This document shows positions 19,548-62,224 of a DNA stretch of 64,000 nt, piece by piece; the first letter of the stretch is position 1, and each line of letters starts with the position of its first letter. The notes beneath the pieces were generated by a model. It saw only the letters and a list, made by a program, of their open reading frames with translations, had not been told where the DNA came from and searched no databases. Location of the stretch: contig JAGVWJ010000008.1 of the NCBI GenBank assembly GCA_018304385.1, positions 1 through 64,000 on the forward strand, given 5' to 3'. The DNA is from Candidatus Micrarchaeota archaeon. GTDB lineage: Archaea > Micrarchaeota > Micrarchaeia > Anstonellales > Bilamarchaeaceae. A program made the translations under genes and the position numbers.

Positions 19548-19829
19548 CGCCTCCGCCGGGGTTGACGGCCTTGCTGTCAAATCTTGTCCGACAGGACAAG
19601 GCTTTCGAACCCGGGTCGTGGACGAGCTGCTCAGTCCTGAGTTTTCTGTTCTGCGTTTCGCGTCACTAGTTTTTCTCAGGGCTTTTGACCAATGTCTTTA
19701 CTTTTGCCACAAGTATGGCAGAAGTCAAAAGTAATGACTGACAGGCCCATATGCTAACCATTGTGCTACTACTTAACGAAGTAGTTTTGGGGTGCCTTTT
19801 CCTAAAAGGCATAACTACACCACAGAGGC
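19548..19829 (-). tRNA. tRNA-Asp(GUC) with three introns (15/16, 37/38, 59/60)
   Basis: Exons 19829-19815, 19760-19739, 19624-19604 and 19561-19548 join to a 72-nt cloverleaf GCCTCTGTGGTGTAG|TGGTTAGCATATGGGCCTGTCA|CGTCCACGACCCGGGTTCGAA|CCCCGGCGGAGGCG; followed by T6. Confidence 0.92.
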
Positions 19830-26229: not shown

Positions 26230-26298
26230 GAATAGTTTATTGGAAATAGATTTATAAGAACATCCCAAAACAACAATCCAAGACCCAAAACAAAAAAA

Positions 26299-26593
26299 TC
26301 CCGCCTGCCTGATTTGTTCCATTGAACCCTTTTTAGAATCTAATTATTTTTTTATGTTAAAAAGGGTTCGTCCAAAAACGACATTAAAATAACCATCGTT
26401 TAAAACCTTCGCCGTTTCTTTGGGGGTGAAGGCCTCAGCCATTGACACGACTTTCGTGTCAATATTTGTCAACATTGTTGACAATTCACTTTCTTTAGAA
26501 GAAAGGGGCTATGGCTTGAACAAGCAACCTATCGGTTTCCGCCTTTTAGGAAAAGGCGGCCTAAAACTCACTAGGGGATTGAGCTAAGGCGGG
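26299..26593 (-). pseudogene. Degenerate tRNA-Tyr-like gene with a 202-nt T-loop intron (58/59) and a hairpin replacing the anticodon loop
   Basis: Acceptor CCCGCCT/AGGCGGG plus A73 (C1-G72, Tyr identity); T-stem GCTTG/CAGGC; TTCAA|intron 26515-26314|AT; T7 downstream; no GG in the D-loop and no GTA anticodon. Confidence 0.75.
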
Positions 26594-26620
26594 ATTATTA
26601 TTTATATGAGAGAATAACTT

Positions 26621-56807: not shown

Positions 56808-58151
56808 TTACTCTACACTCCAATTATATCTTTCTTCAGCTCTTGAAACCTTATCTCTTTCAATATAAGTTCTTGCCTTTTCTGAAAAGGTATTTGGATA
56901 AGTATCTTTTTGATACTCGATTTTTAATTTGGCGCGGGACCCTGATTCATCTATGTTAAATATTCCATAATATACGCTATCATGAGTAGTAATTACTATC
57001 TTATTGTTTTTATAATCAGCTTCCCAATCACCAGAAAGTATGACTGATCCGCTATCCTCTACCCCAACAACGCGCTGTTTTTTGTAATATTTTGTATTAT
57101 TGGTGAAAAATACAAGCACATCAGGAGTTTCGTCAATTACCCATTGCTCTGACTTTAGATACCATTCACCAATAAGCTCTCCTTTATGGCCTTTATGAAA
57201 CAAAATTGGATTAGTAAGATACGGTTCCCATGGCGTTGGCACGACTCCGGATACATCTTTGCCCTTTGAAAGTATTGGATCTACTTCTTTTAGATATTTT
57301 TCAACGAACTGTTTTTTCTCATTCTCTTGTAAATAATCAAATGGAGAAACTAGTGTTGCTCCCTTTATGAATTTATACCAATGAACAACACCATCTCGCC
57401 TATGCTGATCTGCAACATTAAATTCAGCAAACTGATATCCTGGCGCATGTGCAAATTTTTCACCATAACCAACTGGATCACCTGCCTTTACCTTATCACC
57501 AGGTTTTACGAGAGATCTTTGAACATGCATATGCTCGCCCCAAAGCCCATCTCCATAATAAATAATTATATTGGGAGTATCAACTGAGCCCCCTTCTAGA
57601 TCATTGACGTAAACAACTACACCATCAGCCCAACTACGAATAGGAATATTATCTTTAATGGATATCCATTCATGATCTAATCCTTCAGCATGGCCTCCTG
57701 GATGCGCCCCATATGCGCCAATCTGAGCGTATAGTATATCCTCTAACTTGGCAGGTAATATAAGTCGTACAGAAGAAGCGCCTTCTGGCAATGGTTGTGT
57801 TACAGCATCAGTAACCCATTCTTTAGGCTTTGCAGCCTCTGGCACTTCACATAATTCATGTGATAGGTTTTTATTACAAAAATCATTGCATCTTCCTACA
57901 TTGCTCTTGCAAAAAACAAAACAATCTTGCAGTGATGAACAAAAACCCATTCCTTTTGTTTGTGTTAGATCCTCTTCTACAGGTTCAGCTTTTTGTTCTT
58001 TTTCTATTTTTATCTCTGGTTTAGTTTCAGTTTTATTTTCCTTTGTAGATGTTTCAATTTTTGTTTCCTCTTTCTTCACTAATGTTTTATTTGTATCAGA
58101 GACATTTACAGTTTTCTCCGTAACATTTTCTTGTTGAACACATCCGCTCAA
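56808..58151 (-). CDS. M23-like lipoprotein with a Cys-rich motif; signal peptide disrupted
   Basis: LSGC lipobox at the start; HAEGLDH, HMHV, VKPGDKVKAGDPVG; the upstream ATG 58162 (MKAY) is out of frame. Confidence 0.7.
   Translation of the reverse strand: MSGCVQQENVTEKTVNVSDTNKTLVKKEETKIETSTKENKTETKPEIKIEKEQKAEPVEEDLTQTKGMGFCSSLQDCFVFCKSNVGRCNDFCNKNLSHELCEVPEAAKPKEWVTDAVTQPLPEGASSVRLILPAKLEDILYAQIGAYGAHPGGHAEGLDHEWISIKDNIPIRSWADGVVVYVNDLEGGSVDTPNIIIYYGDGLWGEHMHVQRSLVKPGDKVKAGDPVGYGEKFAHAPGYQFAEFNVADQHRRDGVVHWYKFIKGATLVSPFDYLQENEKKQFVEKYLKEVDPILSKGKDVSGVVPTPWEPYLTNPILFHKGHKGELIGEWYLKSEQWVIDETPDVLVFFTNNTKYYKKQRVVGVEDSGSVILSGDWEADYKNNKIVITTHDSVYYGIFNIDESGSRAKLKIEYQKDTYPNTFSEKARTYIERDKVSRAEERYNWSVE
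58052..58150. repeat. 99-bp perfect direct repeat, copy 1
   Basis: Identical to 59107-59205; encodes SGCVQQENVTEKTVNVSDTNKTLVKKEETKIE. Confidence 0.92.
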
Positions 58152-58243: not shown

Positions 58244-59224
58244 TTATCTTTCAGTTATATTATGTAGTAAACATCCTGGAGCAACCCAAGCTTCTTGTTT
58301 GTAAACGTCTTTACCAATAAACTCTTCCCAATCATTTGCTAATCTATTTATTTTTTCTTTATACATTGGTTTTAATGAGTTGTCTAAAAATTCAAATGGG
58401 CAATACTTAATAATATTTTGACCCCCAGTCCATACATTAATCTCAACATTTCCAAATTCTATTTTTCCGTAAGAAGGGGATACTTCAGCTAGTTCTTGGC
58501 CCACTAGGACCTTGTCTCCGGGTTTTATACGCACATTATAAACATGCTCAAATCCAACGATCCAAGGAGAGGATTCATGAGTTTTTATAGAAATAAGATA
58601 GTCTTGTGACGGCTCGAAAAAATTCACATCTGTAATAACTCCCTCAATCGGGGATATAACTTTAGTGCCTACAGGAACATTAAACCCTATTTCTGGAAGC
58701 AGCTTGTCACCCATCTCATTAATTACTCTATGAGCAAACTCAGTAAAAATTTTATCGTCAACATAGTTCTTGTTTTCAAATAAAAAATCTCCCGCCATAT
58801 TTGTTTTTCTGTCCCAAGGTTCTATTTTGATGCCTAAATTTTTTAGGACGGGCTCCATTTCTTGTAGTTTCTCTGTTTGTTCCGTTTCTTCTTGAGGTAG
58901 AAAAATTATTTTGCATAGCTCATTCTTACTTCCTTTACAATATGATTCACAACGTCCGCGATTACTCAGGCAAAAATTTTTACATTCTCCTTCTCCTGTA
59001 CATAAATCACCAAGTTTAGGAATCTGGGATGCATTTGAAAGGATTGTTTTATTATATTTTTCCAAAGAATTGTTGAGAGTTGTTTCTGCAGGTAATATGG
59101 ACTCGTTTTCAATTTTTGTTTCCTCTTTCTTCACTAATGTTTTATTTGTATCAGAGACATTTACAGTTTTCTCCGTAACATTTTCTTGTTGAACACATCC
59201 GCTCAGATTGCATAAGTAACTCAT
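58244..59224 (-). CDS. M23-like lipoprotein with a Cys-rich motif; signal peptide missing
   Basis: LSGC; VISPIEGVITDV, FEHV, IKPGDKVLVGQEL; the only nearby in-frame ATG (59224) overlaps the divergent gene start. Confidence 0.65.
   Translation of the reverse strand: MSYLCNLSGCVQQENVTEKTVNVSDTNKTLVKKEETKIENESILPAETTLNNSLEKYNKTILSNASQIPKLGDLCTGEGECKNFCLSNRGRCESYCKGSKNELCKIIFLPQEETEQTEKLQEMEPVLKNLGIKIEPWDRKTNMAGDFLFENKNYVDDKIFTEFAHRVINEMGDKLLPEIGFNVPVGTKVISPIEGVITDVNFFEPSQDYLISIKTHESSPWIVGFEHVYNVRIKPGDKVLVGQELAEVSPSYGKIEFGNVEINVWTGGQNIIKYCPFEFLDNSLKPMYKEKINRLANDWEEFIGKDVYKQEAWVAPGCLLHNITER
59107..59205. repeat. 99-bp perfect direct repeat, copy 2
   Basis: Identical to 58052-58150. Confidence 0.92.
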
Positions 59225-59495
59225 GAAATCTGGAAAAAACATCTACAAAGCTGGAAAGCTAATTAAAATAGACTTGAAATACGATGACGCAATTCTAGAG
59301 ATTAAGATTCATGGAGATTTCTTTCTTTATCCTGAAGATGCGATAGAAAAATTGCAATCGCAATTAATTGGCACTGTCATTGACAAAAATGCAATAAAGA
59401 CTCGAATTGATTCAATTCTAGAACGAGAAGGCATCGAACCATTTGGATTCACAAGCGAACAGCTTGCTGAAGCGATTATTGGTGCTTGTAAATAG
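59223..59495 (+). CDS. Lipoate-protein ligase C-terminal/accessory subunit (LplB-like)
   Basis: YKAGKLIKI, IKIHGDFFLYPEDAIEKL, FGFTSEQL; near lipA and gcv genes. Confidence 0.85.
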   Translation: MKSGKNIYKAGKLIKIDLKYDDAILEIKIHGDFFLYPEDAIEKLQSQLIGTVIDKNAIKTRIDSILEREGIEPFGFTSEQLAEAIIGACK

Positions 59496-59945: not shown

Positions 59946-60014
59946 CTAATCACCCTTAACATATTATAAAGAAATAACAATATAAATCATTCTGCAAGTA
60001 TATTAATAATTAAC

Positions 60015-60446
60015 GGGCCCGTAGCTCAGCCAGCCTTGAATTGCAAATTCAAGATTTGCAGGCAAGGCCTGCAATGGACAGATCGGCAGCCTTCTATGCC
60101 CAGCCTTTTTAGAATCTTGAGTATTTCTCATGGAAAAAAGGCTAGGCTTAACCCAAAAACTAGGATTACTTGTTTTGGGGCTCGACCTTTTCGACATTAA
60201 AATATAGAAGTGTTGAAAAGGGCGAAAGAGGATAGCTGTAGGACATGGGTTCAAAGCCATATCCCCTTTCTTAGGAAGAAAGGGGCTGAGTCATTCACCC
60301 CCAAAGAAGCGGTGATTGTCTGAGTTATACCTAAAATTGCCGACGCATGCTTTGCATGCGTCTAAAGCGCATTTATAAGAAAAATCTTAGGATAGCGCGG
60401 CTATTTCGCATAGGTATAACAATGGACGAAATTCCCATCGGGCCCG
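60015..60446 (+). tRNA. tRNA-Arg(UCU) with three introns (17/17a, 37/38, 59/60)
   Basis: Exons 60015-60031, 60075-60096, 60234-60255 and 60433-60446 join to 75-nt GGGCCCGTAGCTCAGCC|TGGACAGATCGGCAGCCTTCTA|AGCTGTAGGACATGGGTTCAAA|TCCCATCGGGCCCG; one C11-U24 mismatch. Confidence 0.9.
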
Positions 60447-60526
60447 TATTTTATTTTCCTATTTTAGCATGCTTTAAATTCCTTTTCTATTTAAAACATC
60501 TATTATATAATCACTTATTCTAATTT

Positions 60527-60801: not shown

Positions 60802-61938
60802 TTGCTAGAAAAATTAATGGAAAAAGGAATAAGACTTACACTTGATGCAGAAGAACAAATAAAAAAAAGCGATGTGCAAGACGAGATTGTTGATGAGTTA
60901 CTAACATTGAACAAACCACTTATATCCAAAGAAGATGTTGAATCTATTTTAAATAAAAAAATAACCTCCCCAATTGTGGATATAAAGTCTGCAACTAATT
61001 TTTTACCACTTGCAAAAGAATGGGACACAGATATTAAGATTAATCATACGCGAGATGTTACTGGTAAATCACGTGGAAAAGGAGAGCTAGATGATTTTGT
61101 AAGCTACTTTCGCAATCGTTATGAAAGGCTTGCGCGCTTGTTGCGCACTGGTAGCAAATACCCAAACGCAGACCTTAAAGACATAAAACGATATGTTAAC
61201 GAGAGGGTGCGCGTAATTGTAACTATTTCTGAGAAAAGAGAGACACAAAAAGGAAATACTTTATTCGAAATAGAAGATCTAACTGGCGCATTTAAGGCAG
61301 TTGTTTCTGCAAATAAGTTTTCAAAAGAAAAAGAATTGGCATTCGAAAAGGCAAAACAAGTGCTGTTGGACGATGTTGTAGCAGTTTCTGGCAAAGTTCT
61401 AGAACCCTACATAATAGTTGATGATATTGAATGGCCTGATCTGCCAGTTTTGCGTGAGCGCAAGCTAATAGAAAAGGATTTGGCTATTGCATATATTAGC
61501 GATATGCATTTTGGCTCAAGATATTTTTTAGATCATTATTTAGAGGCATTTTTAGATTGGTTACATGGAAAGGGAGAAGAACGTGAGCTTGCTAGTAAAG
61601 TAAAATATATTGTAGTTGCTGGCGACATAGTTGATGGTATTGGTGTTTATCCAAATCAGGAAAAGGAACTAGTTGTAAAAGATATTTACCAACAGTATAA
61701 AATGTTTGATGATTTTATGGAAAGAGTGCCTGATTACATAAAAGTAATAATGGCACCAGGAAATCATGATGCTGTACGCCGTGGCGAACCAATGCCTGCT
61801 GTGCCTAAGGATCTAATAAAATCTGATGAAGTTATTAGGATTGGTAATCCAAGCTGCGTTGCTATTGAAGGATTAAAGCATTTGGTTTATCATGGTACAT
61901 CAATGGACTCATTAATCGCTGCATTGCCTGATGGTTGA
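60802..61938 (+). CDS. polB: DNA polymerase II (PolD) small subunit DP1, N-terminal part (frameshifted)
   Basis: YFRNRYERL, OB fold, SDMHFGS, AGDIVDG, PGNHD, YHG; ends prematurely at IAALPDG*. Confidence 0.92.
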   Translation: MLEKLMEKGIRLTLDAEEQIKKSDVQDEIVDELLTLNKPLISKEDVESILNKKITSPIVDIKSATNFLPLAKEWDTDIKINHTRDVTGKSRGKGELDDFVSYFRNRYERLARLLRTGSKYPNADLKDIKRYVNERVRVIVTISEKRETQKGNTLFEIEDLTGAFKAVVSANKFSKEKELAFEKAKQVLLDDVVAVSGKVLEPYIIVDDIEWPDLPVLRERKLIEKDLAIAYISDMHFGSRYFLDHYLEAFLDWLHGKGEERELASKVKYIVVAGDIVDGIGVYPNQEKELVVKDIYQQYKMFDDFMERVPDYIKVIMAPGNHDAVRRGEPMPAVPKDLIKSDEVIRIGNPSCVAIEGLKHLVYHGTSMDSLIAALPDG

Positions 61939-62224
61939 ATATTTAAAGCGCAGGCATCTTTCTCCTATTTATGGCGGCAATTTAATAATTCCTGAAAAGG
62001 TAGATTATTTCGTAATAGAGGATGAACCAGATGTTTTGCATTGCGGTCATGTGCACAAAAACGGATATGCACTTTATCGCGGCACATTAGTAATTAACTC
62101 GGGCACATTCCAAGATAGAACAGAATATCAGATTAAACAAGGACATGTACCTACTCCTGCAATTGTACCGGTTTATGAGGCAAAATACGGCAGGTTAAAG
62201 AGTATTGATTTTAAGACGAGCTAA
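61931..62224 (+). CDS. polB: DP1 C-terminal part in the +1 frame
   Basis: YLKRRHLSPIYGG, PDVLHCGHVH, NSGTFQ, QGHVPTP. Confidence 0.9.
   Translation: MVEYLKRRHLSPIYGGNLIIPEKVDYFVIEDEPDVLHCGHVHKNGYALYRGTLVINSGTFQDRTEYQIKQGHVPTPAIVPVYEAKYGRLKSIDFKTS

Follow-up and report, generated by a model that had tools for sequence, protein, structure and literature searches.

Positions 60015 to 60446 of the window, i.e. of the first 64 kb (64,000 nt) of contig C20 in a 1.53-Mb assembly with 36.5% GC and a completeness of about 89%, very probably comprise a working, single-copy tRNA-Arg(UCU) gene of a Micrarchaeota (DPANN) archaeon with three endonuclease-spliced introns, of which introns 2 and 3 are likely to be copies of mobile structured families. 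With 357 of its 432 nt (83%) assigned to introns, the gene illustrates to what extent an essential tRNA gene may be fragmented and still be retained. That splicing actually takes place, that the introns are circularised and how they move is inferred.

Gene layout and conservation of the boundaries

The gene consists of four exons of 17, 22, 22 and 14 nt and three introns of 43, 137 and 177 nt, which are inserted at 17/17a, at the canonical position 37/38 and at 59/60. The base composition across 60015-60446 reflects this layout with GC-rich exons and three AT-richer inserts. The features are as follows:

59980..59988, plus strand: candidate promoter, a putative A/T-rich TATA-like box about 30 nt upstream
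60015..60031, plus strand: exon 1, with the acceptor 5' strand, nt 8-9, the D-stem 5' strand and the D-loop to C17
60032..60074, plus strand: intron 1, 43 nt, at 17/17a
60075..60096, plus strand: exon 2, with the remainder of the D-loop, the D-stem 3' strand, nt 26, the anticodon stem 5' strand and the loop CUUCUA (anticodon UCU)
60097..60233, plus strand: intron 2, 137 nt, at 37/38
60234..60255, plus strand: exon 3, with A38, the anticodon stem 3' strand, the variable loop, the T-stem 5' strand and the T-loop UUCAAA
60256..60432, plus strand: intron 3, 177 nt, at 59/60, with a 5' part (60256..60320) and a 3' part (60321..60432)
60433..60446, plus strand: exon 4, with U60, the T-stem 3' strand, the acceptor 3' strand and the discriminator G
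60448..60458, plus strand: T-rich run TTTTATTTT just 3' of the gene, a likely archaeal terminator

The scripted join of the exons resulted in a product of 75 nt, which was identified by ARAGORN as tRNA-Arg(tct). Removal of the three introns restores a canonical tRNA-Arg cloverleaf, as is characteristic of archaeal bulge-helix-bulge (BHB) introns, and the only flaw in the stems is a C11.U24 mismatch within the D-stem (GCUC/GAUC). Since the same mismatch is found in the orthologue of G002, a genome of the same genus, it can be regarded as a retained feature and not as decay. The CCA end is not encoded in the gene. In its unspliced form, the gene was missed by ARAGORN, which reported no tRNA in the whole 64-kb window, as well as by Rfam at the gathering score. 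As a consequence of such misses by standard tools, the tRNA sets of Micrarchaeota will look incomplete.

The boundaries were compared with orthologues, using the UPF0147 protein as anchor in 61 genomes of the family. The tRNA gene sits just upstream of the UPF0147 gene, and in about 20 genomes of the family tRNA-Arg(UCU) could be modelled with the same neighbour. These orthologues carry or lack introns at exactly the three sites seen here. The loops of the intron-free orthologues (AGCCUGGACA or AGCCUGGAUA, CUUCUAA and UUCAAAU) equal the spliced sequence predicted for the window, which confirms all three boundaries. For example, the joining of exons 1 and 2 creates the D-loop AGCCUGGACA, identical to the uninterrupted D-loop of the G002 orthologue. 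Altogether, the gene structure and the intron positions given in the original prediction proved to be correct by exon joining, ARAGORN and the orthologues. Among the modelled orthologues, the gene described here is the longest (432 nt), followed by genes of 368, 330 and 309 nt.

The two long introns had been described as containing no meaningful open reading frame, and this description is in agreement with the three ORFs of 54-85 aa that overlap the gene, none of which has a Pfam match. A coding intron and an intron with a homing endonuclease ORF were rejected on the same basis. A group I or group II intron was rejected as well, since no Rfam family was found at the gathering score and none was meaningful at E values up to 10.

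In the neighbourhood of the tRNA gene, two adjacent M23 peptidase-like genes (56808-58151 and 58244-59242, minus strand) and then a small PEGA-domain ORF are located directly upstream. The small subunit of PolD (OB-fold and calcineurin-like phosphoesterase) is present as two overlapping ORFs (60802-61938 and 61931-62224) just upstream of the DP2 gene.

Splice motifs, folding and splicing enzymes

A bulge-helix-bulge-like geometry was found at all three sites, which corresponds to the BHB motif only in a relaxed sense, with one mismatch or wobble in each of the three central helices. In the motif of intron 1, the 3' segment CUGC (60069-60072) pairs with nt 12-15 (UCAG, 60026-60029) by 3 bp and a U.C mismatch. 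The bulges are CC/A and AA/U (here and below, the slash within a bulge marks the splice site), and the inner helix is formed by GCCUUG and CAAGGC (60033-60038 / 60063-60068). Orthologues with a GCGC D-stem comprise a perfect GCAG/CUGC helix at this point, and the intron end CUGN-NN/UGG is conserved.

For intron 2, the 3' segment GAGG (60228-60231) pairs with C32-C35 (CUUC, 60091-60094) atop the anticodon stem, including one G.U pair. The 3' bulge is AU/A, and the 5' site lies at the junction of three hairpins (60098-60147, 60152-60179 and 60182-60225) with no closed bulge, i.e. in a relaxed form. Both the central helix CUUC/GAGG and the individual hairpins quoted in the original prediction were present. 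The motif of intron 3 is located atop the T-stem, where the 3' segment CGAA (60427-60430) pairs with U54-A57 (UUCA, 60250-60253) by 3 bp and an A.C mismatch; the bulges are AA/G and AU/U60, and CCAU (60257-60260) forms the inner helix with AUGG (60422-60425). Since the central helices of introns 1 and 3 are interrupted by a mismatch (U.C and A.C, respectively) and a junction takes the place of the 5' bulge in intron 2, cleavage would rely on the broad specificity that has been reported for epsilon2 enzymes.

The introns fold far more stably than shuffled sequences, with z values of -2.9, -4.8 and -6.5 (introns 1, 2 and 3). The three motifs occupy separate nucleotides (nt 12-15, 32-35 and 54-57), each together with the 3' end of its own intron, and a single fold holding all three of them reached -164 kcal/mol, compared to -175 kcal/mol for the unconstrained minimum. 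The earlier assumption that ordered splicing is probably needed is not supported, since the three motifs lie on separate parts and coexist in one fold; according to this model, the structure would demand no splicing order. Due to the use of nt 12-13 in the motif of intron 1, the full D-stem can form only after the removal of this intron. In the unconstrained minimum-energy fold, GCUCAGCC of exon 1 pairs with GGCUGAGU of intron 3 and the D-arm motif is not formed. This pairing of CUCAGCC with GGCUGAG probably arises by chance, because GGCUGAG is unchanged in host tRNAs with a different D-arm; otherwise, it could represent a kinetic trap.

The genome encodes both an endonuclease for relaxed motifs and an RNA ligase, as required for BHB introns. 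An EndA of 399 aa (L031:865-2064) could be aligned from end to end with PDB 4fz2 (E 1e-129), the three-unit epsilon2 splicing endonuclease of ARMAN-2 (Hirata et al. 2012, PMC3488258). According to PMC3239211, this type of enzyme accepts strict as well as relaxed motifs, both at canonical sites and at non-canonical ones. The gene for the ligase RtcB is present on contig C51. In addition to the epsilon2 endonuclease, the genome contains a single-unit ORF of 161 aa that resembles EndA (PF01974, E 1e-8) at L032:1465-1950 (minus strand), which corresponds to contig C53.

Based on these components, transcription would yield a precursor of about 430-440 nt, in which each intron may fold as its own compact multi-hairpin domain. 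The fold would set four bases near the 3' end of the intron beside four exon bases just upstream of the 5' splice site, resulting in a 4-bp helix with a bulge on either side, either as BHB or in its relaxed form. Both bulges would then be cut by the epsilon2-type endonuclease, while RtcB would join the exons and probably circularise the introns, and CCA would be added after splicing.

Exons 2 and 3 occur once each in the assembly (about 89% complete), and no other candidate with a UCU anticodon scored well in the tRNA census of the genome. AGA accounts for 46% of the arginine codons (21.6 per thousand in 607 long ORFs) and is the commonest of them. Judged from the codon usage and the census, the gene would apparently be the sole tRNA for the commonest arginine codon, as far as covered by an assembly of this completeness.

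Intron families and their distribution

With the Rfam tRNA model, only four tRNAs were found above the cut-off in the whole genome. A custom finder was used that tolerates a single insert in each of the three loops (D-loop, anticodon loop and T-loop). Because false positives are frequent at scores under about 42, only the approximately 23 best-scoring candidates were trusted; one Gly(UCC) gene was wrongly called Arg(CCU). Among the 23 confidently modelled tRNA genes, 22 are interrupted, tRNA-Ser(GCU) being the sole exception, and at least six of the approximately 23 carry three inserts. The tRNA-Arg(UCU) gene showed the largest total intron load of the 23 modelled genes, whereas the longest single insert, of about 216 nt, was determined for the T-loop of tRNA-Val(CAC). 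Two further heavily interrupted tRNA genes are located in the window on the minus strand, at approximately 26250-26620 and at 19548-19829. One of them encodes tRNA-Asp(GUC) and has three inserts. In the T-loop intron of the other, the 5' module of intron 3 recurs, and the hairpin of this module houses an additional nested insertion.

The three introns differ in their distribution. Homologues of intron 1 with 77-86% identity are found in the same tRNA of several other genera. It is absent from the tRNA-Arg(UCU) of G002, and G001, likewise a genome of the same genus, contains a different intron of 85 nt at this site. As judged from this pattern, intron 1 appears to be old and vertically inherited, with a precise loss in G002.

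Among the D-loop introns of the genome, those of tRNA-Thr(GGU) and tRNA-Gly(GCC) show 80-84% identity to intron 2, and introns of other tRNAs match as well. Intron 2 and its D-loop relatives have a common three-hairpin architecture. The D-loop relatives end with GAAAUGAGCAA, which pairs with GCUC of the D-stem, whereas intron 2 ends with GAAAGAGGAU, which pairs with CUUC of the anticodon loop. The difference of one base in the pairing segment thus fits the anticodon loop of tRNA-Arg(UCU). The first hairpin-plus-tail module of intron 2 has a further copy outside any modelled tRNA, shortly upstream of a protein-coding start (C24:59650-59708, minus strand, same genome).

Intron 3 was compared with the T-loop intron of tRNA-Ala(UGC), located 27 kb away. 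Over their whole length, the two introns share 151 of 181 positions (83%), while the exons share only 50 of 75 (67%). Introns of different isotypes are therefore more alike than the tRNA bodies that carry them, which is the property of a transposed family. In three genomes of the genus, the hosts of this family comprise Arg, Ala, Pro and Gly tRNAs. The same architecture is found in tRNA-Pro(CGG) of this genome and in Arg(UCG), Gly(UCC), Arg(CCU) and Ala tRNAs of G001 and G002. In these two genomes, site 59/60 of tRNA-Arg(UCU) is occupied by another intron of smaller size, and the intron 3 family occurs in other tRNAs.

Two parts of intron 3 can be distinguished. The 5' part (60256..60320) comprises the helix strand CCAU, a 10-bp hairpin CCCCUUUCUU/AAGAAAGGGG, the conserved GGCUGAG and a small stem UCACC/GGUGA with the loop CCCAAAGAAGC; this module recurs in five other tRNA genes of the genome. 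The 3' part (60321..60432, 112 nt) is a three-way-junction domain closed by GUUAUACCUA/UAGGUAUAAC, and its apical hairpin sequence is partly near-invariant. An alignment of eight members of the intron 3 family, evaluated with RNAalifold, resulted in a consensus fold in which 19 of 47 pairs are compensated.

A covariance model of the 3' domain alone, named R1 (118 positions, 30 pairs), gave 25 matches in 8 of 99 genomes and in 5 of 23 genera of the family. Paired bases were determined for 89.7% of the cells, compared to 30-42% with the partners slid, and 26 of the 30 pairs are changed on both sides, i.e. compensatory. Because the R1 alignment was fitted to the model, these counts lean towards structure; nevertheless, the same picture emerges from the slid controls and, independently, from RNAalifold. 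The best approximately 14 matches all end directly at the T-stem 3' strand, and some weak matches lie elsewhere, including positions just upstream of tRNA genes. A scan of genome contigs with a degenerate pattern showed matches in Micrarchaeota MAGs and scattered bacterial matches, which were taken as chance.

A mirror repeat was additionally observed in intron 3 (60262-60271 vs 60300-60310) and in intron 2 (60104-60111 vs 60152-60160). In the first hairpin, the 5' strand is U-rich and reads C-run, U3, C, U2, and 10-15 nt further on, a tail follows with C-run, A3, G, A2 in the same 5'-3' order, so that the tail mirrors the purine strand of the hairpin. Among the copies, the run lengths of both elements co-vary (U4CU4/A4GA4, U5CU4/A5GA4, U5/A5, U4/A4), as a purine-motif triple helix would require. 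A strict genome-wide test for a hairpin with mirror tail was underpowered, since 17 hairpins were found with only two informative cases, which are homologous.

Because the same families recur in further tRNA genes, mobile introns with a fold that is kept for splicing are the first explanation to consider. Introns 2 and 3 would accordingly be described as copies of modular structured families moving between tRNA genes, for which the T-loop and D-arm would offer nearly universal target sequences. The fold would be kept since the intron must present its splice motif without disturbing an essential tRNA. On the basis of the sequences compared, a mobile intron would be the best fit to the patchy, multi-copy and host-switching distribution. 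The gene provides a concrete case for how archaeal tRNA introns arrive, with one family at two loop positions and a one-base change in the pairing segment, an intron replacement at the same site within the genus and a precise loss in the sister genome.

Alternative explanations and known systems

The distribution of the inserts could also be explained by MITE-like DNA hairpin cassettes, which land anywhere and persist in tRNA loops only because the splicing enzyme happens to remove them, and which would not have spread as introns by means of the splicing machinery. The introns are indeed built of short hairpin modules that recur separately, pieces of them are found in non-tRNA DNA (e.g. at C24:59650-59708 upstream of a protein gene), and nested insertions occur inside family members. 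Nevertheless, the full-length families lie at the same loop position with a 3' end that is matched to the local exon, and no target-site duplication was found at the three junctions, which makes this explanation doubtful.

According to a further explanation, splicing sets free functional RNAs, namely the long introns and in particular the 112-nt domain of intron 3. These RNAs, which may persist as stable circles, would act in trans or bind a protein, so that the tRNA gene would serve mainly as an expression vehicle. The strong covariation together with near-invariant unpaired and apical sequence (e.g. UCU..AAGAA...UCUUAG..UAG..CGG), the very stable fold of intron 3 (z = -6.5) and the few weaker R1 matches outside T-loops, some just upstream of tRNA genes, are in favour of such a role. 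A precedent is given by the C/D box RNA in the tRNA-Trp intron, as described in PMC4090602. However, a pair of C box (RUGAUGA) and D box (CUGA) was found within none of the three introns: the sole C-like box (at most one mismatch) lies in intron 2, which has no CUGA, and intron 3 contains two CUGA and no C box. Rfam searches of the gene at permissive E values (up to 10) gave chance-level matches only. A box C/D RNA-bearing tRNA intron was rejected on these grounds. The domain was moreover detected in just 8 of 99 genomes of the family, with host tRNAs that differ from genome to genome, and is absent from the tRNA-Arg(UCU) of G001 and G002; this patchy distribution suits a mobile element better than a needed RNA. 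Furthermore, the structure could persist merely because a misfolding intron would disable an essential tRNA. The suggestion that the introns may be functional RNAs thus stands with regard to structure, since introns 2 and 3 belong to conserved structured families and intron 3 covaries, and finds no counterpart among C/D box RNAs or Rfam families; a released functional RNA is considered unlikely.

Similarly, it seems improbable that the T-loop intron of about 180 nt represents an undescribed class of structured RNA, which would be generated by way of tRNA splicing and possess its own function or mobility mechanism, for example as a stable circle that reinserts at the universal T-loop sequence. 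As modelled, such an RNA would consist of two parts, namely a hairpin with a mirror-repeat A-rich tail and a covarying three-way-junction domain. A decaying pseudogene with AGA read by another tRNA, as might be suspected from the C11.U24 mismatch, the two relaxed splice motifs and the extreme intron load, is highly improbable, considering that the mismatch also occurs in the G002 orthologue, that the other stems are intact, that no other UCU candidate scored well, that AGA is the commonest arginine codon and that synteny and gene structure are conserved across the family.

Regarded as a tRNA gene with mobile introns, the gene is an extreme case of the disrupted tRNA genes known from ARMAN-2 and Thermoproteales, while its layout itself is known. 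In the literature searched, no paper was found on introns of such length or on such structured families in Micrarchaeota. For archaeal tRNA introns, a review from 2014 states lengths of 11-129 nt with medians of 12-25 nt (PMC4090602), so that the original remark on known archaeal tRNA introns being much shorter holds; introns 2 and 3 (137 and 177 nt) exceed the range of this review.

In ARMAN-2 (Candidatus Micrarchaeum acidiphilum), 56% of the tRNA genes are disrupted, and the introns assayed were 13 and 25 nt long (Fujishima et al. 2011, PMC3239211). This organism belongs to the same phylum and shares the epsilon2 enzyme type, non-canonical sites including 59/60, relaxed BHB motifs and genes with multiple introns. 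Compared to ARMAN-2, the introns described here are 43-177 nt long, 22 of 23 modelled genes are interrupted, and the long introns belong to conserved structured families.

Transposed families of tRNA introns have been described for Thermoproteales (Fujishima et al. 2010, as summarised in PMC4090602 and bioRxiv 10.64898/2026.10.13.758758). As in these families, related introns that are identical by 80% or more are found here in various tRNA types and positions of a single genome, and the intron families common to several tRNA types show the same signature that was used there to argue for transposition. The Thermoproteales differ by their phylum and by an alpha-beta heterotetramer in place of the epsilon2 enzyme, and the introns found here are several times longer, modular and equipped with a covarying three-way-junction fold. 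The tRNA-Trp intron of Euryarchaeota with its box C/D guide RNA, as cited in PMC4090602, is likewise long, non-coding and structured; in contrast to it, no intron of the gene contains a C/D box pair or has an Rfam match.

In some Asgard archaea, nearly all tRNA genes are interrupted, many of them by multiple introns, and are missed by standard tools (PMC11291895; bioRxiv 10.64898/2026.10.13.758758), similar to the genome described here. Contrary to introns 2 and 3, which belong to intron families common to different tRNA types, almost no introns belong to such families there (bioRxiv 10.64898/2026.10.13.758758). One eukaryotic tRNA gene contains introns in the same three arms and thus resembles the gene in the distribution of its introns.

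A further peculiarity was observed for tRNA-Ala. All modelled tRNA-Ala genes of this genome and of G002 comprise a T-loop that starts with UGCGAG and not with UUCRA (G000 C20:87286-87535, outside the window, C59:7319-7472 and C16:33150-33289; L066 and L084). Since the D-loop of Ala(UGC), AGUAGCA, lacks the usual GG as well, both partners of the contact between D-loop and T-loop look changed in this lineage.
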